Shown: one piece after another, positions 30,481 to 59,950 of the stretch
Layout of the letters: each line of letters opens with the position of its first letter
Position numbering within the stretch: the first letter of the stretch is position 1
Assembly: GCA_963699585.1 (NCBI GenBank)
Contig: CAVOUK010000002.1
Coordinates: 72,811 to 136,810 of the forward strand
Source of the DNA: Thermodesulfovibrionia bacterium
GTDB taxonomy: Bacteria > Nitrospirota > Thermodesulfovibrionia > UBA6902
DNA length: 64,000 bases
Direction of reading: 5' to 3'
Position numbers and translations under genes: made by a program
Notes under the pieces: generated by a model
Database searches by the model: none
What the model was told of the DNA's origin: nothing
Seen by the model: the letters and a program-made list of their open reading frames with translations, nothing else

Positions 30481-30484
30481 TTAA

Positions 30485-30514
30485 AGTATACTGCTATCAA
30501 AGAAAGGGTGTCAA
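30485..30514 (-). promoter_or_regulatory. Candidate sigma70-type promoter of the thi operon
   Basis: Minus-strand TTGACA (30509-30514), 18-nt spacer, TATACT (30485-30490), a few nt before the riboswitch. Confidence 0.5.
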
Positions 30515-30650
30515 GCTCGTGAAAGCGCGGAAGTGCCACAGAGCAAAAGTCAGCGGGAAGCGATGAAGTAAATTGTAGGGAGTATCGCGACATGCCCTTT
30601 TAGGCTTTCCGCACTTCCTAACTTCCTTGCTTCCTCGCTTACTTACTTGT
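30510..30650. repeat. Phased-octamer tract pair: AAG-sense arm (30510-30575) and CTT-sense arm (30605-30648) around a degenerate GTAGGG..CCCT palindrome
   Basis: Right arm GGCTTTCC GCACTTCC TAACTTCC TTGCTTCC TCGCTTAC TTACTTG, with CTT at 30622, 30630, 30638 and 30646. Confidence 0.7.
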
Positions 30651-32558
30651 TTTCACACAATTCAGCATTCCACCCGCAAGGACTATCTTCCTCTGTCTTT
30701 CGCTGAGGCCGTGCTCTGCCTTATAGTTCGTCCCTGTGTTCACATTCCTGAACGTGACTTCTGATGATTCTCTGACGTCTTTTGCAAGGGATGAAAATTC
30801 CAGTTCAGCATCCTGGGCAATTGAATCATACACATCTGGTGGTACTGTCAGGGGGAGGATGCCGAAGTTTATCAGGTTGTCTTTATGAATACGTGCAAAT
30901 GACTTGGCAAGCACAATTTTAATCCCGAGATACATCGGTGCAAGGGCTGCATGCTCCCTGCTTGATCCCTGACCGTAATTATTTCCTCCGAGGATTATGC
31001 CGCCGCCTGATGACTTCGCCCTCGATGGAAATGTCGGATCCACCTTTGAAAAGACAAATTCAGATATTGCAGGTATATTCGACCTTAACGGAAGTATCTT
31101 CGCGCCTGCCGGCATTATATCATCGGTGGTTATATTGTCTCCTGTCTTTAGAATCACCTTGGCCTTCAACGATTCCTCAAGCGCTCCCCTTACAGGCAAG
31201 GGTTTAATATTCGGGCCTCTCTCAACTGTTACCTTTTCAGGTTTCTTCGCCGGCGGAATGATCATCGAGTCGTCTATGGCAAATCTTTCAGGAAGCGCAA
31301 CCTTGAGCGGTCCCTTTATAAAATCACGCGGGTCTGTTATCTTTCCTGTAATGGCTGACACCGCCGCAGTCAAAGGACTGCACAGGTAAACCTGGTCATT
31401 GGCGGTGCCGCTTCTTCCGGGGAAATTCCTGTTGAAGGTCCTGAGAGATACAACGCCTGTTGCCGGGGCCTGTCCCATTCCTATACAAGGGCCGCAGGAG
31501 GACTCAAGCACTCTCGCACCTGCGGAGACAATGTCCGACAATGCCCCATTCTCTGTTATCATGCGAAGCGCCTGCCGTGAGCCGGGGCTTACAGCAAGGT
31601 TCACATCAGGATGGACCTTGTGCTTTTTAAGTATCTTTGCCGCAAGCATAAGGTCCGCATAAGAAGAATTAACACAGCTTCCGATGCACACCTGCCTTAC
31701 AGGCGTGCCTTTCAGGTCCTTTACCCGCTTCACATTATCAGGACTTGAAGGGGTAGCGATCATAGGTTCAAGCTTATCAAGTTCGATGATCACCTCTTCG
31801 TCATATGCCGCATCGGCATCGGGTAAAAGTTCTGACCAGTCTGCTCCGCGCTTCTGCGCCTTGAGAAATGCCTTTGTCTGTTCATCCGAAGGGAATATTG
31901 AAGACGTTGCCCCAAGCTCCGCTCCCATGTTCGTTATTGTCGCCCTTTCCGGTACTGTGAGATTTTTTATACCGGCGCCACTGTATTCAACTATCTTCCC
32001 GACGCCGCCTTTTACGGTCAGGCGTCTGAGGACTTCGAGGATTATGTCCTTTGCAGTTACACCTTTTTTAAGCTTCCCTTTCAGGACAACGCAGACTATC
32101 TTCGGCATGACCAAATAGAAAGGCTCTCCGGCCATCGCAAGGGCCACATTCAACCCTCCTGCGCCGATAGCGAGCATGCCCACTGCTCCTGCATTCGGAG
32201 TATGGCTGTCAGACCCTAAAAGAGTCTGTCCCGGTTTTGCGAACCTCTCAAGATGCACCTGATGACAGATGCCGTTTCCGGGCTTGGAGAAATATATGCC
32301 GTATTTGGCAGCAATTGTCTGCAGAAACCTGTGGTCATCCGCATTCTCAAACCCTGTCTGAAGCGTATTATGGTCCACATAGCTCACAGAGAGTTTTGTC
32401 TTTACCTTCGGGATACCCATTGCCTCAAACTCAAGATACGCCATAGTGCCTGTTGCATCCTGAGTCAAAGTCTGATCAATAGATATTGCTATTTCCTCAC
32501 CGGGTTTCATATTCCCGGATACAAGATGTGATGAAATTAATTTCTGCGCTACGTTCAT
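30639..32558 (-). CDS. Aconitate hydratase (aconitase family, fused large+small domains, 639 aa)
   Basis: N-terminus MNVAQKLISSHL..IDQTLTQDATGTMA; Fe-S ligand motifs GSCVNSS and SCGPCIGMGQ. Confidence 0.9.
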   Translation of the reverse strand: MNVAQKLISSHLVSGNMKPGEEIAISIDQTLTQDATGTMAYLEFEAMGIPKVKTKLSVSYVDHNTLQTGFENADDHRFLQTIAAKYGIYFSKPGNGICHQVHLERFAKPGQTLLGSDSHTPNAGAVGMLAIGAGGLNVALAMAGEPFYLVMPKIVCVVLKGKLKKGVTAKDIILEVLRRLTVKGGVGKIVEYSGAGIKNLTVPERATITNMGAELGATSSIFPSDEQTKAFLKAQKRGADWSELLPDADAAYDEEVIIELDKLEPMIATPSSPDNVKRVKDLKGTPVRQVCIGSCVNSSYADLMLAAKILKKHKVHPDVNLAVSPGSRQALRMITENGALSDIVSAGARVLESSCGPCIGMGQAPATGVVSLRTFNRNFPGRSGTANDQVYLCSPLTAAVSAITGKITDPRDFIKGPLKVALPERFAIDDSMIIPPAKKPEKVTVERGPNIKPLPVRGALEESLKAKVILKTGDNITTDDIMPAGAKILPLRSNIPAISEFVFSKVDPTFPSRAKSSGGGIILGGNNYGQGSSREHAALAPMYLGIKIVLAKSFARIHKDNLINFGILPLTVPPDVYDSIAQDAELEFSSLAKDVRESSEVTFRNVNTGTNYKAEHGLSERQRKIVLAGGMLNCVKTSK

Positions 32559-32615
32559 TGAATGGTCTCCTTCATTTACCTGAATAATAATTTATTATAC
32601 TTGATTTGCCTTAAC

Positions 32616-32680
32616 GTCATTCCAGCTTGTCCGGTAACCCCCTTTCATCCCCCTTAAATTAAGGGGGAAAGAGGGGGTTA
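32616..32680. repeat. REP-like element (GTCATTCCAGCTTGTCCGGTAAC) followed by a ~45-bp C/G-run palindrome
   Basis: AACCCCCTTTCATCCCCCTTAAATTAAGGGGGAAAGAGGGGGTTA read directly. Confidence 0.8.
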
Positions 32681-32692
32681 AACAAGAATTAA

Positions 32693-32727
32693 TTTACGAT
32701 TGCGGCGGTAATTTAGTCAAGGAGCGG
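32693..32727 (+). repeat. 35-nt direct repeat, copy 1 (TTTACGATTGCGGCGGTAATTTAGTCAAGGAGCGG)
   Basis: 32/35 identical to 35210-35244. Confidence 0.85.
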
Positions 32728-32759
32728 GGCCATTCCCCCCCTTGACCGTGTCATAAAAA

Positions 32760-32788
32760 TTGACTCCGGCAACGATGTGGGTTATTAT
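32760..32788 (+). promoter_or_regulatory. Candidate sigma70-type promoter of the toxin-antitoxin operon
   Basis: TTGACT (32760-32765), 17-nt spacer, TATTAT (32783-32788), ~33 nt before the antitoxin ATG. Confidence 0.5.
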
Positions 32789-32821
32789 AGCTATAAAGAA
32801 CCACATTATTGGGAGGATATT

Positions 32822-33052
32822 ATGAGAACAATTCAAATGACCTTGGATGATGACCTGGTAGCGGCCGTTGATATGGTTGTTAAAAAACTAAAAACATCGC
32901 GTTCTGCTTTTACACGGAAAGCATTGAAGGATGCTGTCAAGCAGGTGAATATCAACGCACTTGAAAAAAAGCATAAAAAAGGATATGAACGTTATCCAGT
33001 CGGCAAAACGGAATTTAGCGTTTGGGAATCAGAGCAGGAGTGGGGAGATTAA
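32822..33052 (+). CDS. Ribbon-helix-helix (CopG/MazE-like) antitoxin
   Basis: MRTIQMTLDDDLVAAVDMVVKKLKTSRSAFTRKALKDAVK..; GGGAGG RBS 7 nt upstream of ATG 32822 (the track ORF starts earlier at 32777); its stop overlaps the toxin start (TAATG). Confidence 0.8.
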   Translation: MRTIQMTLDDDLVAAVDMVVKKLKTSRSAFTRKALKDAVKQVNINALEKKHKKGYERYPVGKTEFSVWESEQEWGD

Positions 33053-33363
33053 TGAAGCGCGGCGAGGTGAGATGGTATAAGTTTAAAACCCCTGACAAAA
33101 AGCGGCCGGTAGTTATTTTGACAAGAAGTTCCATACTGGATTATTTGGGTGAGGTTACAGTTGCACCGATAACTTCAACAATCAGAGACATACCGAGCGA
33201 AGTGCTTTTGTCGAAACGGGACGGCATGCATAATGATTGCGCTATTAACTGTGACCACTTACAGACAGTTTCAAAGGATAAAATCGGACCGTTGATTACA
33301 GCATTATCTAAAGAGAAGCTATTTGAAATACGAAACGCTGTCTGTTTTGCTTTAAATCTTTGA
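33052..33363 (+). CDS. mazF: MazF/PemK-family endoribonuclease toxin
   Basis: MKRGEVRWYKFKTPDKKRPVVILTRSSILDYLGEVTVAPITSTIRDIPSEV.. typical PemK/MazF N-terminus. Confidence 0.9.
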   Translation: MKRGEVRWYKFKTPDKKRPVVILTRSSILDYLGEVTVAPITSTIRDIPSEVLLSKRDGMHNDCAINCDHLQTVSKDKIGPLITALSKEKLFEIRNAVCFALNL

Positions 33364-33411
33364 TTGAAGATGAGCTAATCTTCTTTTACCTTAAAAAATA
33401 TTTAATATTTC

Positions 33412-33483
33412 TGATTTGTCTTATCGTCATTCCGGCTTGTCCGGAATCTCAGCTTGTCCAGAATTTCCTTGACCGTGTCATAA
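33412..33483. repeat. Second copy of the composite repeat flanking the TA cassette (TGATTTGTCTTATCGTCATTCCGGCTTGTCCGG .. CCTTGACCGTGTCATAA)
   Basis: 33412-33444 is 30/33 identical to 32602-32634; 33467-33483 is identical to 32740-32756. Confidence 0.85.
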
Positions 33484-33643
33484 CTTTTCAGCATAATAAA
33501 CCAGTGGAATGGAAAGGGGGTTTATGGTTGATGACAGAATCGCAAGTGCTATACAGAAAATCCCCTCAAGGAACTATACGAATTATCCCATATTAATAAC
33601 GGATTATATACATAATATCTGTTAGGCTTAAAGATAAGGCTAT

Positions 33644-34309
33644 ATGAAGAACAATAAAATACACTATAAGACATCCAAGGACATTCTTCATTTTCACGGT
33701 ATCTTTGTTTTAATCTTCTATTGGATTTTTCAATTTACTGGCTATTTTCTTTACACTCGACTATGGAGCAAACTCTCAAAAGTAAATTTATTTCAAGCTA
33801 GGGATAAGGCATACAATAAAGCTACCGCATGGTGGCAAGACATTGGAGTTGTTATTCACTTGATCATTACGTGCTTGGTAGTTGCCAGGGGTTTTAATTG
33901 GCTTCTACCATCGATTTTCGTATTATCTTTTGCCTTATATTTTTTACTCGATATCTTGTGTTACCACATACGTGTACTGTGGTTCGACGATCTTGGGATA
34001 GGTTATAACGAAAATGAAAGGATGGTTTGGAGCCACCGCCGTATATTGTTTCAAGCGATTGTTAATTTTGCTGAGACGATTTTAATATTTGCAGTGATTT
34101 ATCGAGCATATATCAATGGATGTTTCTCACAAATTTTACAGAAATCTTTTTCCATTGCTACTACACTTAATAAAGGCGATTTTTCTGCGCCTATCTGGAT
34201 AGTGAATTGTCAGATTCTTATTTCAATATTTTTTTTAGTAGTGGTAATCAGTGAAATTTCATCGATAGGATATTCGCGTCCGGAGATAGGAAAAAGTTTT
34301 GAGAAATGA
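33644..34309 (+). CDS. Hypothetical polytopic membrane protein with K-channel-like pore-loop architecture and a degenerate filter
   Basis: 221 aa, AT-rich. The C-terminal segment reads TM - FSQILQKSFSIATTLNKGDFSAP - TM, where TTLNKGD aligns with the TTVGYGD signature. Confidence 0.5.
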   Translation: MKNNKIHYKTSKDILHFHGIFVLIFYWIFQFTGYFLYTRLWSKLSKVNLFQARDKAYNKATAWWQDIGVVIHLIITCLVVARGFNWLLPSIFVLSFALYFLLDILCYHIRVLWFDDLGIGYNENERMVWSHRRILFQAIVNFAETILIFAVIYRAYINGCFSQILQKSFSIATTLNKGDFSAPIWIVNCQILISIFFLVVVISEISSIGYSRPEIGKSFEK

Positions 34310-34602
34310 ACGAACGGGGGAATAGGTAACACTTTTTACCTATACTTTAAGCAAGGAGGTGCCTACAGTACGGGGCTACGTCCGGCATGAAAAAGTTCCC
34401 TGCCTGCAGGCAATAAATTTGACAAAATACTGTATCAGTTTTATTACATATTCAATTAATGCAATAGCCACTAAAAACATTTACAATTTATGTAAATGCT
34501 TTTCATAACTAAATTAAGATTTGTTCCTTCCGACGGAGTTACTTTCTTTTACCACAAAATCAAGTAACCAAAGAAAGGTGGCCCCAATACCGAGTTCTTA
34601 AC

Positions 34603-34690
34603 GGCTGTAGACTCAATAAAAAGGGAAGTAATTAAACTCCCTTCGGTCAGACACTAATTACTTCTTTATCCTTTTTATTAAGTCTACAGC
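34603..34690. repeat. Long imperfect inverted repeat / hairpin (~30-bp arms)
   Basis: Arms GGCTGTAGACT-c-AATAAAAAGG-g-AAGTAATTA and TAATTACTT-ctttat-CCTTTTTATT-a-AGTCTACAGCC around a ~20-nt loop; single copy in this window. Confidence 0.7.
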
Positions 34691-35040
34691 CTAAACTCGC
34701 TAAAGGGGAGGCATCAAATCCCCCTGCCCCTTTTTCTTAAGGGGGGAATTCAGAACAATACATTAATGTGTTTTTATTTTTTTTAATCCCCCATTGATTG
34801 TTTTAGGGATGGTTCAGGACTGAACGCGTTAAAAATTCAAAAGTGTCTGAGCGAAGCGAGTTTTTTGAATTTAGCGGGCAGGCCTGAAACAGCCCGTTTA
34901 GAAACAATCGTTGGGCGCATTTTGTTTGGTTACTTTATTTTCGGGCGTTCAAAATAAAGTAACCGGGGTTTGGGGCAGAGCCCCATTATTAATTAATATA
35001 AAAAGTCACAAATTGTGTTTACAACAACTGTAAATGTAAA

Positions 35041-35095
35041 GTAGGGGCGCCCCTACGAGAGAACACAAAAAGGGCACGTCGCGACGTGCCCCTAC
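35041..35095. repeat. REP-like palindromes GTAGGGGCGCCCCTAC and AGGGCACGTCGCGACGTGCCCCTAC
   Basis: Direct reading; same GTAGGGGC/GCCCCTAC termini as the thi-operon copies. Confidence 0.8.
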
Positions 35096-35209
35096 TATCA
35101 TCCCCTTCGCCTTCTGCATGATCTGCTGTTCGCTCCTGTAAGACAACATTTCAATCGCTTCATCTAATCGGGAACCATCTAACCTCGTCCACTTCATGAT
35201 CATGATCTT

Positions 35210-35244
35210 TTTACGATTGCAGCGGCAATTAAGTCAAGGAGCGG
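35210..35244 (+). repeat. 35-nt direct repeat, copy 2 (TTTACGATTGCAGCGGCAATTAAGTCAAGGAGCGG)
   Basis: 32/35 identical to 32693-32727. Confidence 0.85.
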
Positions 35245-35374
35245 TCCGGTTAAGTTCTGGTGACGTTTCTTGTTTTGTCGATTTTTTGTATACTTTATAA
35301 CTGTCGGGATGTTTTTAGTGTCCATTTATATATATTAGATATATGTAATGAACCATCAAATGGAAGGAGAACAG

Positions 35375-37280
35375 ATGGTAAAGCATAATATAAGCCTTTT
35401 TTCTGATCAGGACATATACCTCTTTAAAGAAGGCAACCATTTCAAGCTGTATGAAAAACTCGGCTCTCATCCCATGACCGTTGACGGGATTGAAGGGACC
35501 TATTTCGCTGTCTGGGCGCCGAATGCAGAACAGGTTTCCGTAACCGGTGATTTTAACGGATGGAGACAAGGGATCTCACAAGCTCATGCCAAGGTGGGAC
35601 GCATCCGGCATCTGGGAAGGTTTTATTCCGGGGATCGGGAAAGGGGAAATATACAAATTCCATATAGTTTCCAGATACAATGACTACAGCGTGGATAAAG
35701 GCGATCCTTATGCACTCCATTGGGAAATGCCTCCAGGACCGGCTCTATTGTGTGGGAACTGGATTATGCATGGAATGATACGTGAATGGATGGCGAACAG
35801 GCATAAATATAATTCATTGAAGGCGCCTTACGCCATATATGAAGTCCATCTCGGCTCCTGGAGACGCGTTCCTGAGGAAGGCGACAGATTCCTGAACTAC
35901 CGGGAAATAGCCCATTACCTGGCAGATTATGTGAAGGACATGGGATTTACGCATGTTGAGCTCCTGCCGATCATGGAGCACCCTTTTTACGGCTCCTGGG
36001 GATATCAGACCACAGGATATTTTGCGCCGACAAGCAGGTATGGGACCCCGCAGGACCTCATGTACATGGTCGACCATCTCCATCAGAACGGCATCGGGGT
36101 CATCATAGACTGGGTACCCTCACATTTCCCCTCTGATGAACACGGCCTCGCATATTTTGACGGCTCGTATCTCTATGAGCATGAGGACCCGAAAAAGGGA
36201 TACCACCCTGAATGGAACAGCTATATATTCAACTACGGCAGGAACGAAGTGAGAAATTTTCTTATCAGCAGCGCCCTTTTCTGGCTGGACAAATATCACA
36301 TTGACGGTATAAGAGTTGATGCAGTGGCTTCCATGCTGTATCTGGACTATGCAAGACAAAGCGGCGAATGGATACCGAATATTTACGGCGGGAAAGAAGA
36401 CCTTGACGCAATAAGCTTTCTGAAAAGACTGAATGAAGCCGTCTACAGCACATATCCTGATGTTCAGACAATGGCTGAAGAGTCAACAGCCTGGCCCATG
36501 GTCTCCAAACCGACACACGTCGGCGGACTGGGTTTTGGCATGAAATGGAACATGGGCTGGATGCATGATACCTTGAAGTATATTTCAACAGACCCTATCT
36601 TCAGGAAATATCATCACGACCAGCTTACTTTCAGTATATGGTATGCGTTTTCAGAGAACTTCCTGCTCCCCATCTCTCACGACGAGGTCGTTCACGGCAA
36701 GGGAGCGCTTATCGGAAAAATGCCTGGAGATGAGTGGCAACGGTCTGCAAACCTGAGGCTTTTATTCGGATATATGTACAGCCACCCCGGCAAAAAACTC
36801 CTTTTTATGGGTGGTGAGTTGAGCCAGTGGAAAGAGTGGAACCATGATGAGAGCCTGGAATGGCACAGCCTGAATTATCCTTTTCAGAGGGGGATAAACA
36901 GATGGGTCAGGGACTTAAACCACCTTTACAGAAACGAACCCGCATTATACGAACTTGATTTTTCAAATGACGGATTTGAATGGATAGATTTTCACGATTG
37001 GGAGCAAAGCATTGTTGCTTTTATCAGGAAGGGGAAATCTACCGGTGAAATAATTCTGATCGTCTGTAACTACACAGGAGTTCCGAGATACAGTTACAGG
37101 GTAGGCGTACCTCACGGAGGTTACTGGAGAGAGATCCTGAACAGTGATGCAGAAATATACGGAGGAAGCGGTTGCGGCAATGCCGGCGGCGTTGAAGCCG
37201 TTTCTGTACCCGTGCAGGAAAGGGCTTTTTCCCTTTCGCTTACTCTGCCTCCGCTTGGAGCATTGTTTTTTAAGAGTTAA
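35375..37280 (+). CDS. glgB: 1,4-alpha-glucan branching enzyme (GH13); one frame break near 35560-35575 plus a short compensated frame excursion at 35736-35786
   Basis: N-terminal ..[40 protein letters not shown], then ..[14 protein letters not shown].., [35 protein letters not shown]; AAGGAG RBS before ATG 35375; span 1906 nt (3n+1). Confidence 0.9.
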
Positions 37281-37312
37281 GCGTTAATAATCAGGAGCCG
37301 TTAATACTAAAT

Positions 37313-39734
37313 ATGGACAAATACATTTGCATACATGGACATTTTTATCAGCCCCCGAGAGAGAACCCCTGGCTGGAAGAGATAGAATTTCAGGACAGCG
37401 CATACCCCTATCATGACTGGAACGAGCGGATAACCGCAGAGTGTTATGCCCCGAATGCAGCTTCACGTATCCTTGACAAGGATGGAAAAATCATTGACAT
37501 TGTGAACATCTACACAAAGATCAGCTTCGATTTCGGCCCTACCCTTCTGTCATGGCTCGAAAGGCACAAACCCGATGTGTACGAGTCAATAATTGAGGCC
37601 GACAGGCTCAGCATGAAAAGGTTCTCAGGACACGGCTCAGCCATCGCGCATGCATACAATCACATGATATTACCCCTTGCAAACAGAAAGGACAAATATA
37701 CACAGATAATATGGGGAATAAAAGATTTTGAAAAAAGGTTCGGGAGATCTCCCGAGGGTATGTGGCTTCCGGAAGCTGCAGTGGATAAAGAGACCCTTGA
37801 GGTGCTTGTGAGTCTCGGGATAAAATTTACCATACTCGCACCGAGGCAGGCGCAAAGGGTCCGCAAAAGAACGGAAACCGGCAACTGGCAGGATGCAAGG
37901 GGAGAAAATATCGACCCGACAATGGCATATCTGTGCGAACTGCCTTCAGGCAGGTCCATAAATCTTTTTTTCTATGACGGCCCGATCTCGCAGGAGATCT
38001 CTTTCGGCGGTTTGTTGAACAACGGGGAAGGCTTTGCAAAAAAACTGCTTTCCGCATTCAACGATCACAGGAACAGGCCGCAGATCGTCCATATCTCAAC
38101 TGACGGAGAAACTTTCGGACACCATCACAGGTTCGGAGACATGGCGCTTTCCTATGCCCTGCATTATATCGAAACCAACAAGCTTGCGATCATTACAAAT
38201 TACGGTGAATATCTCGAAAAACACCCTCCGACGCATGTAGCTGACATTTTTGATAATTCCTCCTGGAGTTGTGTGCATGGCGTGGAAAGATGGAGAAGCA
38301 ACTGCGGATGCCATTCTGGAATGAATCCGGCATGGAACCAGTCCTGGAGAAAACCTTTAAGGGAAGCGATGGACTGGCTGAGGGACAAGCTTATCCTGGT
38401 CTACGGGACCGAGGGGGCCAAATACTTTCATAACCCATGGGACGCCAGAAACGACTACATTGAAGTTATTCTGGACAGGTCCCGTGAGAATATAGAAAAA
38501 TTCCTTTCAGAGCATTCTGTCAGAAAACTTTCAGAAGTAGAAAAGATGACAGCGCTTAAACTCCTCGAGGCGCAAAGGAACACCATGCTGATGTATACAA
38601 GCTGCGGCTGGTTTTTTGATGAGGTTTCAGGGATAGAGACTGTTCAGATCATGCAATACGCATCCAAGGCCCTTCAGTATATGGAAGAGCTTCAGAAGAT
38701 ATCTCTCGAAGAGGAATACTTAAAATATCTCGAGAAGGCCCCGAGCAATGTATTTAAAAATGCCCTGGAACCTTATGAAATGTTTGTAAAAAATGCTAAA
38801 AGCAACCTGCACCGTGTCGGGGCCCATTTTTGTATATCTTCGATATTTGAAAAATATCCTGAAAACACAAAAATCTACTGCTACAGTACAAAAACTGAAA
38901 TGTACGTCAGGAGAGAAGCAGGAAAGTTCAAACTTGCTACAGGAAAGCTGAATATCACTTCCGACATAACATGGGACGAGAAAACTATCAGTTTCACCGT
39001 ACTGCATCTTGGAGACCACAATATCAATGCCGGAGTAAAAGATTTTCAGGGGAGTGACGATTTTGCACTCATGCAAAAAGAAATGACAGCCGCCTTTGAA
39101 AAGGGCGATATTCCCGAAGTGATAAGGCTTATGGACAAACATTTTAACGGCAATATCTTTTCTTTATGGCATCTGTTCAGGGATGAGCAGAGAAAAGTAC
39201 TTGATATGGTGCTTAAATTTACCTATGAAAGCATCGAATCCTCATATCGTCAGATATATGAGAACAATTCCACTATAATGCATTTCTATCAAAATCTGCA
39301 GCACAGGGTACCAAGGCCTTTTCTTTCGGCCGCTGAATACATAATTAATACGGACATAAAAAGGATCTTTGAAAAAGAGGACCTGGATATAGAAAAACTA
39401 AAAAAACTGATAGATGAGATCAAAAGATGGTCCATTAAAATAGACTCTGTTACTATTGGATTTATTGCAAGTTCATGGGTCAACTCCATAATGCAGAGAC
39501 TGAGCGAAAACCAGGAAGACATAAGGCTGTTCGAAAAGATCGACACAATACTTGAACTCTTGAAACTTTTTGTCTCTCCCGTTAAATCTCTGGAGCGCCC
39601 AGAATATCTACTTTTCTATCAGTAAGGGCATTTTCTCCAGGATGAAAGAAGCCGCTAAAAAAGGTGACACGTCCGCTCAAACCTGGGTGGAAGGTTTTTC
39701 TAAGTTAGGGTATTATTTGTGTGTAAAGGTTTAA
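37313..39734 (+). CDS. Glycoside hydrolase family 57 protein (~806 aa); C-terminal frame break near 39585-39600
   Basis: HGHFYQPPRENPW.. GH57 N-terminus. After the track ORF's stop (39625) an adjacent frame continues LNLWSAQNIYFSISKGIFSRMKEAAKKGDTSAQTWVEGFSKLGYYLCVKV to the stop at 39732-39734; span 2422 nt (3n+1). Confidence 0.85.
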
Positions 39735-39742
39735 CAATATAA

Positions 39743-39771
39743 GTAGGGGCGAACCGGCGGGTCGCCCCTGC
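39743..39771. repeat. REP-like palindrome GTAGGGGCGAaccggcggGTCGCCCCTGC after the GH57 gene (possible terminator stem)
   Basis: 8-bp GC-rich stem; no U-tract. Confidence 0.6.
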
Positions 39772-45161: not shown

Positions 45162-45533
45162 TTAGAAAAAGAAGGCAATCTCTTTTGATGGCTTTTCCAA
45201 AAGTTGCAATCCTACTCTATTCCTGTCATTACCGGGCGGTATTTTACTTGACCATATTATCATGCATTTCAAAATGACTGTCTCTCCTGCAGGAGATTCA
45301 AATTTCAGATCTGATAATTCATCAGGCACAAAATTAAGTTCAGGGTCCAGCGGGTCCGTTAACACATTTGCTCCCGACCATGAAATATTTTCTATAACCC
45401 CGGGATAGCTGTTATTTCTGTAAAGAATTTCCGTCCTGTATTTGCCTGCAACTCGTTCAGAATTTCTATTTTCCATTTTCTGCTCGATCCCCTTTTCTAT
45501 CCAAGTATAAATATGTAGGGCCGGAAAATACAA
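45162..45533 (-). CDS. PilZ-domain (c-di-GMP binding) protein
   Basis: RNSER (RxxxR) followed by ENISWSG (D/NxSxxG); the likely true start is MENRNSER at 45476. Confidence 0.65.
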   Translation of the reverse strand: MYFPALHIYTWIEKGIEQKMENRNSERVAGKYRTEILYRNNSYPGVIENISWSGANVLTDPLDPELNFVPDELSDLKFESPAGETVILKCMIIWSSKIPPGNDRNRVGLQLLEKPSKEIAFFF

Positions 45534-45891
45534 GAGCGCGGAAGGGCGTGAACTCGTAAGTTCAGTGCTTTTGTACTTTTCATCTTAATTCCTCTCTAGA
45601 GGGGTTAGGGGTGTGTTCCAATCTGTTGCATTGCTGCCTGATAATTAAAGCGTCAAAACGATGACAAATTTAAATGATTGTCTTAATAAAACAGATCAGG
45701 AAATTAGTAAGATAATTTTAATCACGTTAAAATAATCCTTAAAAATCAGCACGATTAACAAGTTACAATTTGCAGCTCTCCAGTATTCTTTAATCATTTC
45801 TTCATTGAAAAACCTTTGGCAAAGTATTTGCAATATCCAATTGATGTTCTTTACAGAGAATAAACCTGCGGGAACCGGCAGGAGGAAAAAA

Positions 45892-48800: not shown

Positions 48801-48970
48801 TGTTGCCTGCAGGAGCAGGTTCAAAAGGAAAAACAAAGGTCAATATCCCTATGGATACGCCTAAAGGCAAGTACTATGTAAAGGTCTGTGCAGACAACAG
48901 GAATGATATAGCAGAAACAAATGAAGATAATAATTGCAGAACATCAGCTAACAAAATAAAAGTTAAATAA
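45892..48970 (+). CDS. Large secreted protein: 7-blade RCC1-like propeller + CARDB + ~7 MopE-type Cys/Asp repeats + CARDB; one frame break (extra T at 46600)
   Basis: AGGAGG RBS and signal peptide [30 protein letters not shown]; repeated [26 protein letters not shown]; [14 protein letters not shown]-type motifs; CARDB-like [20 protein letters not shown] and [11 protein letters not shown]..; ORFs 45805..46662 and 46511..48970 join; span 3079 nt (3n+1). Confidence 0.85.
45997..47030 (+). repeat. Seven tandem 150-bp coding repeats (RCC1 blades) with high nucleotide identity
   Basis: Units start at 45997, 46147, 46297, 46447, 46597, 46748 and 46898; long identical runs such as CCTTGCCTTAAAATCAGACGGAAC.TTATGGGCGTGGGGA. 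Confidence 0.85.
47708..48355 (+). repeat. Four tandem 162-bp coding repeats (54-aa MopE-type modules), near-identical
   Basis: Units start at 47708, 47870, 48032 and 48194; only scattered substitutions between copies. Confidence 0.9.
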
Positions 48971-49829: not shown

Positions 49830-49890
49830 AAGATATAAATATGATACGCCACGATAACGTGAAAGCGCAACCTTAAAACAGCAACAGATT

Positions 49891-49946
49891 CAAGCTTGCC
49901 AGCTTGCCAGCTTGCACGCTTTCCAGCTTTCAAGTTTGCACGCTCC
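49891..49946 (+). repeat. Phased-octamer tract, 7 units
   Basis: CAAGCTTG CCAGCTTG CCAGCTTG CACGCTTT CCAGCTTT CAAGTTTG CACGCTCC. Confidence 0.85.
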
Positions 49947-50240
49947 TGTCCCGGCGACAAAGGCTATGATTCAGGATCAAAAAGAGGTATAATATAAGTA
50001 GAAGACTGTGCGATAGCCTGGGATAAATTGAACTAAGAACCGGGTAGATCGGTTAGTGAGCGGTAGGCGACGGTGGAAAAACACCTTATCACTCACATAA
50101 AAGTTCCAGGGTTCAACCCTGCCAGGACATCGCAATTTTTAATAGAGCCATCTTAAGACAAGGCGCCACGCTGTTTTACGTGACATAAGGTGGATGCAGC
50201 TGTAACAAAGTCATCCAAGGAAGCTGTCTTAAAGATGACT

Positions 50241-51492: not shown

Positions 51493-51643
51493 AATATTTC
51501 CTCCTTTTTAAATTCAGTTGCTTTTAACTGGATTATATTAACAATTTATTTTGTCAAAAGAAACTCCCGATTTCCCCGGCACACAGGGGGATGAAGTGCG
51601 AAAGCATGAAAGTGGGGAAACGCATATATAAGCGACGCAGTTG

Positions 51644-52253
51644 TTATGCTGTTTTTCGTAAAAGGCACCGAACGGCATTACCCAATCGACCTATTCCAAT
51701 GTCTATGGTTTCTTCATCAACACACGAAAAATTCAGTCGAAATGTCCTTGTCCCTGTTTTATTAATATAGAACGGGTCACCCGGCACAAATATTACCTTG
51801 TCTTTTATTGCCAGATCAAACAGGTCAAGCGATGTTGCGTTCACCGGTAATTCAGCCCATAGAAACATCCCGCCCTCAGGTCTGGTATAACTTACGCCTG
51901 GCGGAAAATGTTTTTTTATGCTGCTCAACATTGCCTGGCATTGTCTCCCATATACTTCCCTGACCGTATTTATGTGTTTCTCAATATCATTGTCCTTTAA
52001 ATACTGATAAATAATGCTCTGAGTGAAATGACTTGTTTAGATGGCCTTCTGAATTGCTATATTGGAAAATGTCGCGTCCATGTGTATGAAATACCTTATT
52101 TGTCGCCTTCTCAAGCTCCTCTGCAGGAAAATATTCTCTGTTCGGCAGCCCGCCTGCAAAAGAGATTATTGATTCGTCTGCAGCAACCTTCAATATCTCT
52201 CTGATAAATGATCTCGGCACATCACTGATCCTGTCTGAAAAAATATTGCCCAT
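51644..52253 (-). pseudogene. Remnant of a class I/II PLP-dependent aminotransferase (LysN/MocR-type) lacking the central ~190 codons
   Basis: The N-terminal ~72 aa (..RSFIREILKVAADESIISFAGGLPNREYFP..QYSNSEGHL) abut the C-terminal ~125 aa (FTQSIIYQYLKDNDIEKHINTVREVYGRQCQAMLSSIKKHFPPGVSYTRPEGGMFLWAEL..). The PLP-lysine region is absent and there is also a frame shift. Confidence 0.75.
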
Positions 52254-53788: not shown

Positions 53789-53885
53789 CCACCTCCTTTC
53801 TAAACTGTATCTGTTAATAGCTCGTTTGGAGAACAGAGAGAAACAGATGTAATGACCACCTGTTTCTCTCTTTGTTCATACCGGA

Positions 53886-54041: not shown

Positions 54042-54108
54042 ATGTCCTCACCTCCTTTCATTATATTACTGTTCTACAACAATAGAACAGTAATGGCAAA
54101 AAAAAGAT

Positions 54109-54480: not shown

Positions 54481-54647
54481 GTATTTTTTGTATTATTTTG
54501 ATACTTTCTTTTTAAGCTCATAATTGGACATTTCCACTTTTCTCTCCTTTTGAGCAGAAATGGGTCAATCGCTCCCCTGCCTCGCTGAAATCTCCCGGAC
54601 ACAGTCGATATCATAATCTCAACGCAGCGCGTCATAAAGGGAACTAA

Positions 54648-54706
54648 GCGATCTTCCCCGCTTCCGGGCGCTTGCCAGCTTGCACGCTTCCCCGCTTCCG
54701 AGCTAC
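54648..54706 (+). repeat. Phased-octamer tract immediately upstream of the spmA/B-like gene
   Basis: CTT at 54653, 54661, 54671, 54679, 54687 and 54695 (8-nt steps with one 10-nt step). Confidence 0.8.
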
Positions 54707-54714
54707 TATATTGC

Positions 54715-55947
54715 ATGGTCCTCAACTACATCTGGATCGGTTTTTTTGTGATCGCCTTTATTGTCGGGATGGCAAAGCTGCTCATGTTCGGCGACATGGA
54801 CGTATTCCCGCAGATGATGAACGCCACATTCGAGTATGCCAGATCAGGATTTGAGATCTCTCTGGGATTGACAGGCGTCCTGACCCTCTGGATGGGTTTG
54901 ATGAAGATAGGAGAAGAAGGCGGGGTCGTCAGGATCTTTTCCAGGGCCATCTGGCCGTTCTTTCACCGTCTATTCCCTGAGCTTGAAAAAGACCATCCTG
55001 CCGTAGGCTCCATCATCATGAACATCTCCGCCAACATGCTGGGACTTGATAACGCTGCCACGCCTCTCGGTTTAAGGGCGATGAAGGAGATGCAGGCCAC
55101 AAACAAACACAGGGACAGGGCATCGGACCCCATGATAATGTTTACCGTGCTGAACACCTCCGGACTCACACTTATCCCCGTTACTATTATGGTGTACCGG
55201 TTCCAGCTCGGGGCCGCGGACCCCTCGGATATTTTTATTCCCATATTACTGGCGACCTCATTTTCAACAATGGCAGGCCTCATCAGCGTGGCCCTGTATC
55301 AGAGGATCAATCTACTGGACAGGGTGGTCCTGGTATATCTCGGAGGTTTCACATTACTTGTCGGCGCATCGATGTTCCTTCTTTCCAGGATGAGCAGGGA
55401 AGAGATAGCGGCTGTTTCCTCAGTTGCGGCCAACCTGCTGCTTTTCTCCATCATCGTCGGTTTTATACTGCTCGCTTCATTCAGGCGGGTCAACGTTTAC
55501 GAATCATTTATCGAAGGGGCAAAAGACGGCTTTCATATTGCTGTCAGAATCATCCCCTATCTGATCGCCATCCTGGTTGCCGTGGGCGTTTTCAGGACAT
55601 CGGGGGCAATGGACATGTTCACAGATCTAGTCCGTAATATTCTGGTATCGCTCAACATAAATGCCGACTTTACGGCCGCCCTGCCGACTGCGTTCATGAA
55701 ACCCCTCAGCGGAAGCGGCGCCAGGGGAATGATGGTGGATGCAATGAAAACATACGGAGCCGACTCCTTCGCCGGAAGGGTCGCGTCAATAATGCAGGGT
55801 TCCTCCGATACCACGTTTTACATCATCGCCGTTTATTTCGGTTCTGTCGGGATAAAAAATACTCGCTACGCAGTCATATGCGGACTTATCGCTGATCTTG
55901 CAGGCATACTGGCATCTATATTCATCGCCTATCTGTTCTTTCATTGA
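54715..55947 (+). CDS. Nucleoside-recognition (GATE) domain membrane protein, fused SpmA/SpmB-like
   Basis: 410 aa; MVLNYIWIGFFVIAFIVGMAKLL.. SpmA-like N-terminus and SpmB-like second half. Confidence 0.7.
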   Translation: MVLNYIWIGFFVIAFIVGMAKLLMFGDMDVFPQMMNATFEYARSGFEISLGLTGVLTLWMGLMKIGEEGGVVRIFSRAIWPFFHRLFPELEKDHPAVGSIIMNISANMLGLDNAATPLGLRAMKEMQATNKHRDRASDPMIMFTVLNTSGLTLIPVTIMVYRFQLGAADPSDIFIPILLATSFSTMAGLISVALYQRINLLDRVVLVYLGGFTLLVGASMFLLSRMSREEIAAVSSVAANLLLFSIIVGFILLASFRRVNVYESFIEGAKDGFHIAVRIIPYLIAILVAVGVFRTSGAMDMFTDLVRNILVSLNINADFTAALPTAFMKPLSGSGARGMMVDAMKTYGADSFAGRVASIMQGSSDTTFYIIAVYFGSVGIKNTRYAVICGLIADLAGILASIFIAYLFFH

Positions 55948-55961
55948 TCATTGCATATTAC

Positions 55962-56036
55962 TAACTTCCGATCTTCCCTGCTTCAGATCTTACGATCTTA
56001 TGCACTTCCGCGCTTCCAGGCTTGCGAGCTTCTTCG
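55962..56036 (+). repeat. Phased-octamer tract, 9-10 units, directly after the spmA/B-like stop
   Basis: AACTTCCG ATCTTCCC TGCTTCAG ATCTTACG ATCTTATG CACTTCCG CGCTTCCA GGCTTGCG AGCTTCTT; CTT at 55965 + 8n for n = 0..8. Confidence 0.9.
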
Positions 56037-56203
56037 TCATGGTTTGGGATATTTAGTGGTGAGGAAGTTTAATGCAAGAATCAAGATGACCCTATTGCCC
56101 TTAACTTGTTGCAGAGGAATTCCTGGGTGATCGTATATGCGAAAAACCGAGACTCTTGACACCTTTTCGAGACTATGGTAAAAAGTAAACAGGAGTAATT
56201 GAA

Positions 56204-56615
56204 ATGAGAACGCTCAGGCTATCATTGGGTGTGGCAGTAGTAATGATGATCCTTTTTACCGGAGTCGTGGCATCCGCCCGGGGTGGCGGTCATCGCGGCG
56301 GCCATGGCGGTTCACACTTTGGCATTGTAATTGGCGGTCCGTATTGGGATGCGTCCTGGTATTTTCCATATTACTATCCATTTACAATCCATTTTATATC
56401 CATATTATTATCCATATGCACCGGCGGCTACTGCGCCGTCAGTTACTGAAGAATATATCGAGCGGCCCCGGAACGAGCAGTCAGACGAATCATCCGAGCC
56501 GTCGGGTGTCTGGTATTACTGCCCCAAGTCAAGGGCCTATTATCCTTACGTAAAAGAATGTCCGGGGGGCTGGCAGAAGGTGCCGGCTCAACCACCCTCG
56601 GAACCAGAGAGGTGA
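56204..56615 (+). CDS. Small secreted Gly/His- and Tyr/Pro-rich protein with a C-terminal WYYC..YYPYV..CPGGW motif; frame break(s) in the YYP-repeat region ~56370-56400
   Basis: Signal peptide MRTLRLSLGVAVVMMILFTGVVASA, GGGHRGGHGGSH. The second frame gives ..YYPYYYPYAPAATAP..SGVWYYCPKSRAYYPYVKECPGGWQKVPAQPP; span 412 nt (3n+1). Confidence 0.55.
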
Positions 56616-56619
56616 TGTT

Positions 56620-57165: not shown

Positions 57166-57192
57166 TAACTGCGAAGCCAATAAGGGCCTCAA

Positions 57193-57238
57193 CCACTTCC
57201 ACGCCGGCAAGCTTGCAGGCTTTCAAGCTTGCCAGCGC
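57193..57238 (+). repeat. Phased-octamer tract between the glycine-zipper gene and GH43
   Basis: CTT at 57196, 57212, 57220 and 57228; overlaps the putative GH43 start. Confidence 0.7.
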
Positions 57239-58196: not shown

Positions 58197-58217
58197 CTCT
58201 TAAGAGCGCAAGAACAT

Positions 58218-58290
58218 AAGCTCATTAGCTCGTAAGTTTCGCTCTTCCCACTGGAAGCTTTCCAGCTTACATGCTTGCAGGCTTCTTCGA
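58218..58290 (+). repeat. Phased-octamer tract directly after the GH43 stop
   Basis: ..AGCTTTCC AGCTTACA TGCTTGCA GGCTTCTT..; CTT at 58258, 58266, 58274 and 58282; the upstream part is less regular. Confidence 0.75.
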
Positions 58291-58572
58291 CTGTTCTTCT
58301 TTGCAGTTTATCAATCCCATGCCAAGCAGCAACAGTATTAATCCCCATACAAATGCCAGAATAGCTCTAGCATCACCCTCTGGATTTATTCCAGTTATAT
58401 CAAAATGTACTGAGTACTCATAAATAAAAAATGATATCCCCACAATAATAAAAATAATTCCTAATGTTTTATTTTGACGAAGTGGTTTGTTCTTTATATA
58501 TCTGATGCTCGCGTAACATGCAAAAACAACTAATAATAACTTCAGTATCGAAAGTAATATGAACGGCATCAT
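58267..58572 (-). CDS. Small hypothetical membrane protein (101 aa, ~3 TM)
   Basis: AT-rich ORF; hydrophobic segments; its last ~8 codons are encoded by the octamer tract. Confidence 0.5.
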   Translation of the reverse strand: MMPFILLSILKLLLVVFACYASIRYIKNKPLRQNKTLGIIFIIVGISFFIYEYSVHFDITGINPEGDARAILAFVWGLILLLLGMGLINCKEEQSKKPASM

Positions 58573-58710
58573 TCACGATACGCCTACGCCATGCCCAAAA
58601 CCCCATAGCGTCATAAAACCAGAAGATATAACAATCCAAAAGAGCATTAATATTGAAGGTATGATCATCAATACGCCTAATGTCCTTGATTTTAGTGAGA
58701 TGTTAAGCAT
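58573..58710 (-). CDS. Candidate 45-aa membrane sORF coupled to the 101-aa membrane protein
   Basis: My translation: MLNISLKSRTLGVLMIIPSILMLFWIVISSGFMTLWGFGHGVGVS; its stop TGA abuts the next ATG (TGAATG). Confidence 0.35.
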   Translation of the reverse strand: MLNISLKSRTLGVLMIIPSILMLFWIVISSGFMTLWGFGHGVGVS

Positions 58711-58754
58711 AAGTATATGGTTTATCTCTTAATAGTTACTTTACTTATAACAGA

Positions 58755-58803
58755 TAAGCTGGCAAGCGTGCAAGCTGGATAGCTTTCAGGCCTGCCGGCT
58801 TTA
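58755..58803. repeat. Phased-octamer tract, AAG-sense units then CTT-sense units
   Basis: AAGCTGGC AAGCGTGC AAGCTGGA TAGCTTTC AGGCCTGC CGGCTTTA. Confidence 0.75.
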
Positions 58804-58837
58804 TGGACCTTCTCCCCCTCACCCCGTCGAGTCGTGC

Positions 58838-58866
58838 TTGACATAATCATTTTTTGGGATTATAAT
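58838..58866 (+). promoter_or_regulatory. Consensus sigma70-type promoter upstream of the GGDEF gene
   Basis: TTGACA (58838-58843), 17-nt spacer, TATAAT (58861-58866); predicts a ~105-nt leader. Confidence 0.6.
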
Positions 58867-58977
58867 CCCAATTATGGACACGTGTCCGGGGAAAGCCTTC
58901 GGTTCTTCGCTCTTGCAGGTGAAGAGTGCTGTCGACAGCAGCATATTTATTGCCGGGCTTCAGGGAGGATATTGAAT

Positions 58978-59841
58978 ATGCTCTCATTAAAAATAACCTT
59001 GATTTTCTATTTCCTTGTAATTATCCTCATAGCCGATCTGAACGCCATTGTTGATCTGGTCCTGCACCCTGATATCTCATACTTTGATAAAGAGCATTTG
59101 ATCATAGGAGGCATTACAGCCGGATTCATTGCCCTCATTTTTGGGTTATTGCTATTGTATACGAAACGGCTGCAAAATCTTATCACATTGCAGAAGCGCA
59201 CAGAAGAAAAGCTCCGGCTTTTGTCTCTTACGGATGAACTTACAGGCATACACAACAGGCGCGGATTTATCACCCTGGCTGAACAGGAGTTAAAGAGGGC
59301 CAACAGGCTGAAAAAAAATAAGATGTTGATCCTTGCAGCAGACATGGATGGTCTCAAGAGGATCAATGATACGTTTGGTCATCATGAGGGCGACCTGGCG
59401 CTGATCATGTTTTCCTGTATCCTCAAGAAAACTTTTCGCGATTCAGATATTATCGCACGTATCGGGGGGGATGAGTTCATGGTGTTTCAGGTAGAAAATG
59501 ACATTAACAATTCAAATACAATTACTGCGCGCCTGCAGAAAAATCTCGATATCCAGAATGCCAGGAACAGCAGCTACAAGTTATCTTTAAGCATCGGTAC
59601 AGTGTACTATGATCCGCAAGTCCATCATTCTCTTGATGAGCTGATGACCCACGTGGATAAAATGATGTACGAGCAAAAAAGGCAACATAAAAGCCTGATC
59701 AGGGTAGTTGCAGACACGTCACCAGCGACTCATTATCTTTCACCTCTTGTTCCGGACATGGCAACACCTACAACAATAACTACCAAAGAAGGCGAATTTA
59801 CAGATCATATTCACGACTGCCGAATGGGATTAAGCAAATGA
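58978..59841 (+). CDS. Membrane-anchored diguanylate cyclase (GGDEF) with I-site
   Basis: GGGAGG RBS before ATG 58978 (MLSLKITLIFYFLVIILIA..); ..DELTGIHNRRGF.., RDSD I-site five residues before RIGGDEFMVF. Confidence 0.85.
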   Translation: MLSLKITLIFYFLVIILIADLNAIVDLVLHPDISYFDKEHLIIGGITAGFIALIFGLLLLYTKRLQNLITLQKRTEEKLRLLSLTDELTGIHNRRGFITLAEQELKRANRLKKNKMLILAADMDGLKRINDTFGHHEGDLALIMFSCILKKTFRDSDIIARIGGDEFMVFQVENDINNSNTITARLQKNLDIQNARNSSYKLSLSIGTVYYDPQVHHSLDELMTHVDKMMYEQKRQHKSLIRVVADTSPATHYLSPLVPDMATPTTITTKEGEFTDHIHDCRMGLSK

Positions 59842-59869
59842 TAAACTGACTGATTAGAAATTTCTTTTA

Positions 59870-59950
59870 AGCTTCAATGTACTTTCTTCCGCGCTTACGA
59901 GCTTCCCCGCTTCCAAGCTTTCCAGCTTGCCGGCTTTCGGGCTTTCCCGA
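59870..59950 (+). repeat. Phased-octamer tract, ~10 units, directly after the GGDEF stop
   Basis: ..TCTTCCGC GCTTACGA GCTTCCCC GCTTCCAA GCTTTCCA GCTTGCCG GCTTTCGG GCTTTCCC; CTT at 59886 + 8n for n = 0..7. Confidence 0.9.

Follow-up and report, generated by a model that had tools for sequence, protein, structure and literature searches.

The short tandemly repeated repetitive (STRR) sequences of heterocystous cyanobacteria are intergenic and have a heptanucleotide unit, and the REP, BIME and REPIN elements are GTAG-type extragenic palindromes mobilised by RAYT transposases. Short phased sites can also serve proteins: MetJ, on tandem 8-bp met boxes, and the omega repressor, on 7-bp heptads, nucleate and spread. 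Dispersed short repeats (REP, BIME, STRR, CRISPR) have repeatedly been found to mark unexpected machinery. Here we describe intergenic arrays in a 64,000-nucleotide stretch of a Thermodesulfovibrionia bacterium (Nitrospirota; assembly GCA_963699585.1, contig CAVOUK010000002.1, positions 72,811 to 136,810), referred to below as the window, in which CTT on one strand, and hence AAG on the other, recurs every 8 nt amid variable filler. These arrays turn over much faster than neutral sites yet keep their phase and a CTT..C core. The best reading is that they evolve and act as a DNA minisatellite, and not as a sense-specific RNA signal or as dedicated landing pads for Rho, a role that a first-pass annotation had proposed for them. 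The family is lineage-specific, confined to a narrow Nitrospirota clade, with analogous arrays in other taxa. As that annotation had supposed, no named family of this design was found: Rfam gave no match to the arrays of the window and of 12 related loci, and literature text and sequence searches returned no description of such arrays.

Results

Read directly in the sequence, every tract first proposed is present, at most a few bases from where it had been placed (Table 1). The repeat architecture is genuine, since CTT pairs at a lag of 8 nt number 63 in the window, against about 20–40 at neighbouring lags, with echoes at lags of 16 (54 pairs) and 24 (51 pairs). At least four of five phased CTT triplets are found at seven plus-strand places (30606-56, 49887-937, 54663-705, 55957-56039, 57196-230, 58250-92 and 59878-952), where 200 block shuffles gave 0.07 on average, and a single place, 58202-36, has at least four of five phased units in the AAG sense. 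The pattern GCTTNCNN repeated three times and followed by GCTT matched eight times (0.00 in 100 dinucleotide shuffles), and five phased CTT with at most one mismatch 17 times (0.01 expected). When all 64 trinucleotides were scanned at lags of 5–12 over 176 kb of DNA from this lineage, CTT at lag 8 yielded 18 chains of at least four; GCT at lag 8, itself part of the octamer unit, yielded six and every other combination five or fewer. Tandem Repeats Finder (TRF) independently returned a period of 8, with just 65–84% matches in the window arrays (58–84% when the long arrays of the relative L121 are included, and 58–93% overall). The chains of nine steps at 55965-56031 and eight at 59886-59944 proved exact, as announced; the seven units reported at 49891-49946 comprise five exact and two degenerate ones, and the AAG tract at 30510-30575 is real but irregular.

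The window holds about 11 arrays, only three of which reach some 60 nt, and all of them, like the nine found in 21 kb of L121 (GCA_040961615.1), are intergenic or overlap gene ends. Orthologous arrays recur in independent NCBI, JGI and ENA assemblies, which rules out an assembly artefact. Only CTTN repeats of 4-nt period were seen in the viral contigs searched, and these give no sign of a phage origin.

A logo built from 86 in-phase units reads G-C-T-T-N-C-V-M, with GCTTNC as the core. G stands at position 1 in 64% of the units, position 5 is free (N, 0.08 bits) and C occupies position 6 in 90%, a conservation that was not imposed by the search. Nearly every unit within an array is distinct in this lineage, and both the TRF matches and unit comparison bear out the view that these are neither microsatellites nor simple variable number tandem repeats (VNTRs) of near-identical units. 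Steps of 7, 9 and 10 nt are interspersed, and 7-nt units (CTTACCC, CCCTAAT) pass in phase into 8-nt units. The invariant columns are C-T-T, with YC at positions 5–6 in only 64% of the units. In the long arrays the CTT-sense strand is C-rich and G-poor, as first described (C 34–44%, G 8–24%), and single arrays have no structure, with fold z-scores of -0.14 (55955-56040), -0.37 (59870-59965) and +0.18 (49855-49950). Four other ideas about the unit were tried and dropped: a G-quadruplex or i-motif, because many units (such as GCTTGCCA and GCTTGCAC) have no runs of G or C; a UNCG or GNRA mini-hairpin, which suits no more than the minority of units that have GA or GC at their end; a CsrA-type GGA sponge, as GGA appears in just about 38% of units in the AAG sense; and adenine mutagenesis like that of diversity-generating retroelements, given that the arrays are too numerous, the window encodes no reverse transcriptase and position 1 is biased to G.

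The first-pass annotation had placed most tracts immediately downstream of a stop codon and in the mRNA sense. About five of the 11 follow a co-oriented stop (55965, 57193, 59886, the distal half of 58202-58292, and 51592), and for four to five of the window arrays the distance is 18–54 nt. Two arrays, 49891-49946 and 30606-30656, lie antisense to the genes on either side, five arrays were counted in divergent spacers (the divergent promoter spacers hold 54648-54706, 58755-58803 and 45536-45590), and the part of 58202-58236 adjacent to the GH43 stop is in the AAG sense. Orientation, when checked against the genes, follows the absolute strand instead: all seven strong arrays of the window, and all nine of L121, carry CTT on one same absolute strand whatever the gene orientation, and the L121 arrays occupy tandem, convergent and divergent spacers alike. 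This is the C-rich strand by third-position GC skew in both gene orientations, the skew of the plus strand of the window being -0.089 in plus-strand genes and -0.098 in minus-strand genes. L121 and L124 share this sign of the skew, and the flipped loci L141-L144, with 7-nt arrays in the AAG sense, have the reverse sign. Because the CTT strand is C-rich, the usual skew rule does not make it the lagging-strand template, and the idea of a primase site was dropped.

Arrays of the two senses are also found as pairs. A metagenome scan for heterogeneous five-unit arrays gave 120 loci with GC contents of 0.32–0.74; the CTT..C core was imposed by the search pattern, the arrangement of the arms was not. 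An ACTT[TC]C[CG]G family accounts for many of these loci, and one such locus is from Chitinophagaceae by protein similarity. Wherever AAG and CTT chains lie within 80 nt of each other, across taxa, AAG comes first in 26 cases and CTT first in none. These composites fold, with 21–81 pairs (mostly 34–52) enclosing the centre and z-scores of -12 in L149, -7.8 in L184 and -5.7 in L262. The window composites are weaker: 58750-58808 reaches -27.5 kcal/mol (z -4.2), 45530-45595 and 30505-30654 have z-scores of -2.5, and in 58202-58284 just 7 pairs enclose the centre. The early statement that the tracts are not self-complementary fails for some of them. A GC-rich stem-loop is lacking from single arrays and present in composites. 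A U-tract does not follow the stems (mean of 1.3 T in the next 10 nt, 25 composites); the sole exception with a T-run is 59937-59960, where a 5-bp hairpin, TCGGGCTTTCCCGA, made of the final two units of 59886-59952, precedes TTTATTT.

Composites occupy tandem (9), convergent (6) and divergent (4) spacers, and many begin 0–14 nt past the end of an open reading frame (ORF); single arrays of other taxa, in low-GC loci, are sense in 9 cases, antisense in 10, convergent in 6 and divergent in 3. Genes in the metagenome loci were called crudely from ORFs, so such context counts are approximate, and many apparent cases inside ORFs in high-GC contigs are probably spurious ORFs. Array loci beyond this lineage include L184 (4553-4629; Chitinophagaceae, 5.27-Mb contig), L149, L177, L215, L224, L249 and dozens more. 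Soil Bacteroidota and other taxa are very rich in octamer arrays of the ACTT[TC]C[CG]G or ACTTCCAT type, many of them 34–81 bp palindromes that fill convergent or tandem spacers, and these arrays too had no Rfam match.

The homologues found for the SpmA-like gene and for aconitase bear the names Nitrospirae, Nitrospiraceae or Thermodesulfovibrionia; no entry identical to the SpmA protein of the window was found. A search of relatives, proposed from the outset, found arrays in L121 (SpmA 94% identical) and around SpmA in the short contigs L124 and L125 (95% and 91%), and none in L122 (CP070632) and L123, at 77–82% SpmA identity. SpmA is flanked by arrays on both sides in four genomes. The array 3′ of SpmA in the window (55965-56036) has orthologues in L121, L124 and L125, and the proximal units of the upstream array (54648-54706) are conserved in L121 and L124. 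Across the four genomes, aligned orthologous arrays agree in every CTT column and differ in the filler. The 3′ array has 9, 8, 7 and 9 units with scrambled content; copy number thus differs between close relatives, as in a VNTR. Four-fold degenerate sites of SpmA are 0.87 identical between the window and L121 and 0.89 between L121 and L124, whereas the non-core identity of orthologous arrays, 0.37–0.57, is that of random unit pairs (0.41), so that turnover is much faster than neutral substitution. The array upstream of HerA is likewise scrambled between L121 and L124, though its flanks are about 95% identical. In a broad scan of genome contigs with GCTTNCNN three times plus GCTT, (GCTT)n and exact 8-mers dominate among the matches listed, which also include exact GCTTNCNN-type octamer repeats in many phyla and degenerate, window-like arrays in some Desulfobacterales metagenome-assembled genomes (MAGs).

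The window also carries REP-like palindromes framed GTAGGGGC...GCCCCTAC, in spacers of the thiamine and glycogen operons (Table 1). A perfect 28-mer, GTAGGGGCAATTCATGAATTGCCCCTAC, is complete at two sites, and its first half recurs inside 27742-27794; GTAGGGGCG with at most one mismatch occurs 17 times in the window against 6.7 expected. No RAYT (Y1 transposase)-like gene is encoded in the 64 kb. These elements begin 5′ GTAGGGG and end CCCCTAC 3′, and so already have the purine-then-pyrimidine polarity. Four relatives carry GTAGGGGCGACCCGCCGGGTCGCCCCTAC between aconitase and the thiH promoter, a spacer that in the window is filled by about 130 nt of AAG units, a decayed palindrome and CTT units running up to the -35 element. 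In this one orthologous spacer, then, a composite takes the slot of the REP-like hairpin (GTAGGGGCG...CGCCCCTAC) of four relatives. There are also 7-nt tandem arrays, in the window and at L121 9860-9897 and 14040-14060, L124 1-35, L143 4541-4606 and L144 11236-11273, which resemble tandem REP terminal heptamers and adjoin the 8-nt arrays or run in phase with them. Their unit types in spacers of the lineage are CTTACCC, CCCTAAT, GTAAGGG, TCAAGGG and AATTTGA; one orthologous spacer, such as ThiS-ThiG, holds a different type in each genome, and in L123 a composite of 7-nt units, purine arm then pyrimidine arm, lies upstream of SpmA. A link between the arrays and the REP-like hairpins is suggestive, and not general.

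Several arrays touch expression signals. The thiH promoter, GCTTGACA-17-TATACT, is conserved in four relatives and is followed by the thiamine pyrophosphate (TPP) riboswitch. Upstream of SpmA, the unit GCTTGCAC provides a -35-like TTGCAC; a spacer of 18 nt leads to TACTAT and another of 5 nt to the ATG. The sequence at 54680-54717 is probably a leaderless promoter without a Shine-Dalgarno motif. L121 and L124 retain TTGCAC-18-TACTAT, where L125 has 7-nt repeats of unrelated sequence; TACTAT-N5-ATG is kept down to relatives of 82% identity (L123). A promoter matching the consensus at 12 of 12 positions (TTGACA-17-TATAAT, 58838-58866) sits 35 nt to the right of the composite 58755-58803. The mechanically assigned GTG start of the GGDEF ORF (58834) overlaps this promoter (58834-58873), and the true start codon must therefore lie further downstream. 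The promoter and hairpin signals near arrays look like by-products of arrays filling the spacers.

The window, part of a contig of 930 kb, is an ordinary stretch of chromosome, with a thiamine operon behind the TPP riboswitch, glycogen genes, aconitase, PilZ, GGDEF, GH43 and tRNA-Sec, and none of its genes encodes a recombinase, reverse transcriptase or transposase. In the window six consecutive spacers (54.6–60 kb) hold arrays, as do seven in L121 (9.8–17.3 kb), all co-oriented. SpmA and its flanking arrays are found in three different neighbourhoods among four genomes, and homology stops inside the arrays. An island of 46 nt lies immediately to the right of the SpmA array (56041-56086); its L121 counterpart (17361-17406) is 6 kb further on, and HerA, PIN and toxin-antitoxin cassettes, each bounded by arrays, stand between. 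The island, GGTTTGGGAT.TTT.G.GGTGAGG.AGT.TAAT.CAAGAATCAAGA, is conserved between the window and L121, is single-copy in each, and in both has an array directly to its left amid otherwise unrelated sequence. In L121 it reads TTGGGA-18-TATAAT; the island may be a promoter or mark where a small RNA begins.

Other features of the window are listed with the arrays in Table 1. Several genes are split or truncated (20098-22018, 35348-37280, 3683-6167, 45805-48970, 25729-26778 and 51644-51931): DXS (two overlapping ORFs), a GH13 branching enzyme, a P-type ATPase, an RCC1/CARDB protein, ThiC without about 77 N-terminal profile positions, and a C-terminal fragment of an aminotransferase. They may be pseudogenes, or the result of frameshift errors in an assembly of long reads. 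The 11/23-nt repeat TCCATATTACTA probably encodes a Tyr/Pro-rich peptide repeat.

Table 1. Octamer arrays and other features placed in the window
Feature	Position	Strand	Remarks
REP-like palindrome	27074-27101		
REP-like palindrome	27742-27794		
7-nt tandem array	27795-27815		
7-nt tandem array	28606-28638		
REP-like palindrome	28881-28908		
REP-like palindrome	30295-30322		
TPP riboswitch	30376-30483	-	70 bits; ahead of thiH-like radical-SAM gene
Irregular CTT-sense arm (AAG on +)	30510-30575	-	distal arm of composite between aconitase stop and thiH promoter; abuts -35 GCTTGACA
Centre of that composite	30575-30597	.	decayed REP-like palindrome GTAGGGAGTATCGCGACATGCCC, related to copy at 35072-35095
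CTT array, 5–6 units	30606-30656	+	exact chain of 5 at 30614-30648; overlaps opposite-strand aconitase stop
REP-like palindrome	35041-35095		parts 35041-35056 and 35072-35095
REP-like palindrome	39743-39771		
Weak AAG-then-CTT composite	45536-45590	.	divergent PilZ/RCC1 spacer; fold -19 kcal/mol, z -2.5
In-frame tandem repeat, 150 nt x6.6	45997-46980		RCC1/MopE-motif/CARDB gene
In-frame tandem repeat, 162 nt x4.2	47708-48384		same gene
Lone AAG-type unit CGTGAAAGC	49859-49870		near array 49891-49946
CTT array, 5 exact + 2 degenerate units	49891-49946	+	exact part 49895-49929; between two minus-strand genes
Short 3-unit array	51592-51621	-	CTT on minus strand; AAG-sense chain of 3 at 51594-51612
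CTT array	54648-54706	+	directly upstream of SpmA; 4 exact units (54671-54697) + 2 after a 10-nt step
CTT array, 9 units	55965-56036	+	18 nt past SpmA stop; exact 9-step chain 55965-56031
Tandem repeat, 11/23 nt	56360-56417		in small ORF 56204-56449, upstream of glycine-zipper gene
Short CTT array	57193-57238	+	3 exact units (57212-57230); after glycine-zipper gene
Composite	58202-58292	.	convergent spacer; AAG units 58202-58236 (exact chain of 3, 58202-58220), CTT units 58250-58292 (exact chain of 4, 58258-58284); CTT arm overlaps 3′ end of minus-strand ORF 58267-58572
Composite	58755-58803	.	divergent spacer; AAG x3 (58756-58774) then CTT x2
CTT array, 8 units	59886-59960	+	chain 59886-59944; after GGDEF gene
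tRNA-Sec	63405-63502	-	anticodon TCA; ARAGORN and Rfam

Discussion

The explanation that we favour, tentatively, is that the arrays are a DNA-level, strand-polar and hypervariable octamer family of the REP and STRR kind, expanding beside intergenic hairpins and lengthening or replacing them when paired. In this lineage the hairpins would be the REP-like palindromes with their purine-then-pyrimidine ends, and the arrays would arise in situ on their flanks by a strand-asymmetric, replication-linked process of expansion or replacement, for example slippage in a register of 8 or template switching. The fixed CTT..C would then be a requirement of the generating process, or of a factor that reads the duplex. 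Effects on expression would be secondary: a longer hairpin at a gene boundary, a donated -35-like TTGC hexamer, or C-rich RNA when an array is in sense.

A number of observations weigh against this explanation. Replacement of a hairpin by a composite was found in one orthologous case only, and a REP-like heptamer lies within 90 nt of only about a third of the 8-nt arrays. Slippage predicts identical adjacent units, and plain slippage fails here because neighbouring units nearly all differ. Ectopic exchange between arrays was considered in its turn, and no convincing excess of shared segments was seen: the longest inter-array segment is 20 nt in the window (null 95th percentile 17, maximum 22) and 15 nt in L121 (null mean 14.6). 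The link to the replication strand comes from two or three loci and the sign of the skew, and among the heterogeneous metagenome loci the tendency of array strand to follow skew is weak (48 vs 30, p = 0.054). Finally, a conserved core with free filler also fits a site for a protein or RNA-binding factor, and hence a selected function.

The whole set of features (8-nt phase, CTT..C core, turnover, strand rule and the 26:0 order of the arms) is not explained by slippage, terminators or Rho. If a dedicated factor or generating enzyme does stand behind the arrays, that would add something new to the biology of bacterial genomes. Otherwise the arrays are useful as hypervariable strain markers and as a caution for predictors of terminators, rut sites and small RNAs; they probably also give rise to breaks in the assembly, and to rearrangement breakpoints, in these MAGs.

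Two other explanations are live rivals. The first is that the arrays are operator-like, with a small cooperative DNA-binding protein spreading on phased 8-bp sites and the two arms of a composite bound head to head. By analogy with MetJ and omega, such a protein would account for a conserved core, free filler and a fixed phase, for CTT columns that are invariant across four genomes, for direct and inverted arrangements obeying a strict polarity rule, and for the several arrays that abut or contain -35 elements. We nevertheless think it unlikely. A rigid filament would tolerate poorly the 7-, 9- and 10-nt steps mixed into the arrays, unit number is scrambled between close relatives, arrays are missing from relatives that have the same genes and promoters, and there is no candidate binding protein for them.

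The second live rival, to which we give a somewhat slimmer chance, is that co-oriented arrays act as recombination sites for excision and insertion at the ends of cassettes of one to three genes in variable islands, in the manner of an integron without attC or IntI. As in an integron, co-oriented arrays stand at every cassette boundary in the window (54.6–60 kb) and in L121 (9.8–17.3 kb), despite mixed gene orientation, and both the three neighbourhoods of SpmA, with homology ending inside the arrays, and the 6 kb of HerA, PIN and toxin-antitoxin genes between the SpmA array and the 46-nt island of L121 could be read as cassette movement. However, arrays fill most spacers, so that any intergenic breakpoint lands in or beside one and the coincidence is weak evidence for recombination. 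No recombinase is encoded in the window, and no tyrosine recombinase in the window or among the called genes of L121; read by sequence, the arrays contain no attC frame of inverted R″/L″-L′/R′ core sites (GTTRRRY). Arrays also occur in stable housekeeping contexts (30.6 and 49.9 kb), are scrambled even where both flanks are conserved, and have no excess of shared segments.

It is improbable that the arrays are the cis product or substrate of an undescribed DNA transaction, one that would span several phyla (Nitrospirota, Chitinophagaceae and high-GC taxa). One version supposes an activity that lays CTT-phased octamers at DNA 3′ ends or nicks beside hairpins; a purine-strand repeat added to both 3′ ends of a break, which is then rejoined, would produce the AAG-then-CTT order, the free filler and the polarity. 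The other version supposes a recombinase-poor shuffling of gene cassettes, with co-oriented arrays as boundaries in variable islands.

No better a prospect is an RNA role like that of REP hairpins, in which composites would be bidirectional terminators or 3′ stabilisers against exonucleases and single arrays their decayed halves. The strong folds, the composite that stands in place of a GC-rich hairpin immediately ahead of the thiH promoter, the hairpin and T-run at 59937-59960, and the composite contexts (9 tandem, 6 convergent and 4 divergent), with many composites 0–14 nt past an ORF end, would all fit; and as purines precede pyrimidines, the U/C-rich arm comes 3′ whichever way the spacer is transcribed. 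The absence of U-tracts after the stems (1.3 T per 10 nt, 25 composites) argues against such a role, most arrays of the lineage are single and unstructured, and divergent spacers are not depleted of arrays.

We are more doubtful still of phased rut sites, that is, 50–80 nt of C/U-rich, G-poor and unstructured RNA on which the Rho hexamer loads for termination. Rut sites have no strict consensus; U and YC are over-represented in them and G is scarce, the pockets of Rho reading YC (PMC9499579). The composition of the CTT strand, the lack of structure in single arrays, the four to five window arrays 18–54 nt past a co-oriented stop, and the scarcity of canonical intrinsic terminators at 44.5–64 kb are all in keeping with Rho loading. 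Yet the Rho reading explains no more than the composition of sense arrays and is not supported. Orientation is independent of the genes (49891, 30606 and all nine arrays of L121; 9 sense to 10 antisense in other taxa), arrays stand in divergent promoter spacers and extend into a -35 element, the invariant bases are CTT and not YC, and where AAG and CTT arms pair, the C-rich arm is sequestered in a hairpin that would hide a rut site. The least credible proposal, polar guidance motifs of the Chi or KOPS type with G-rich GNAAGC on the leading strand, is largely refuted, for although array orientation agrees with the sign of the skew, the motif is octameric and G/A-rich and unit pairs contain GAAGCGG, the core has no strand skew outside the arrays (GCTTNC 73 on plus and 74 on minus; CTTCC 91 vs 72) and we know of no Chi or KOPS motifs in tandem intergenic arrays.

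Set beside the systems with which they might be confused, the long arrays share with rut sites a sense strand that is U-rich, unstructured and higher in C than in G, and differ from them in orientation that is not tied to transcription, in conserved bases other than YC and in positions upstream of promoters. With the MetJ and omega sites they have in common contiguous short degenerate sites in direct and inverted arrangement near promoters, at a non-helical period that for met boxes is the same 8 bp; unlike a met box, GCTTNCVM is not palindromic, copy number is hypervariable, and the arrays are genome-wide rather than specific to a regulon. The variant-repeat minisatellites and foldback elements of eukaryotes resemble them in a conserved core, variant units and very high turnover, and long inverted arms of short tandem repeats are found in other taxa (L149, L184 and L250); the arrays are prokaryotic, 25–80 nt long in this lineage, and without evidence of mobility or target duplications. 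STRR sequences, too, are built of a very short tandem unit, lie dispersed between genes in many copies and have no established function, and 7-nt arrays (CTTACCC, CCCTAAT, GTAAGGG) lie beside or in phase with the 8-nt arrays here. In contrast to STRR, the period is 8, with 7-nt arrays a minor class, the host is a member of the Nitrospirota (with analogues in Chitinophagaceae and high-GC taxa), nearly all units differ around a CTT..C core, and pairing obeys a strict purine-then-pyrimidine rule. The REP, BIME and REPIN elements, finally, have a palindrome of 20–40 nt framed by GTAG...CTAC, which the separate family at 27074-39771 possesses and the arrays, being tandem octamers without that frame and mostly not palindromic, do not; the two are alike in being intergenic, often just past stop codons, able to form hairpins when paired, lineage-specific and fast-evolving, and the GTAGGGGC...GCCCCTAC family coexists with the arrays in the window, where one composite both replaces and flanks such an element.

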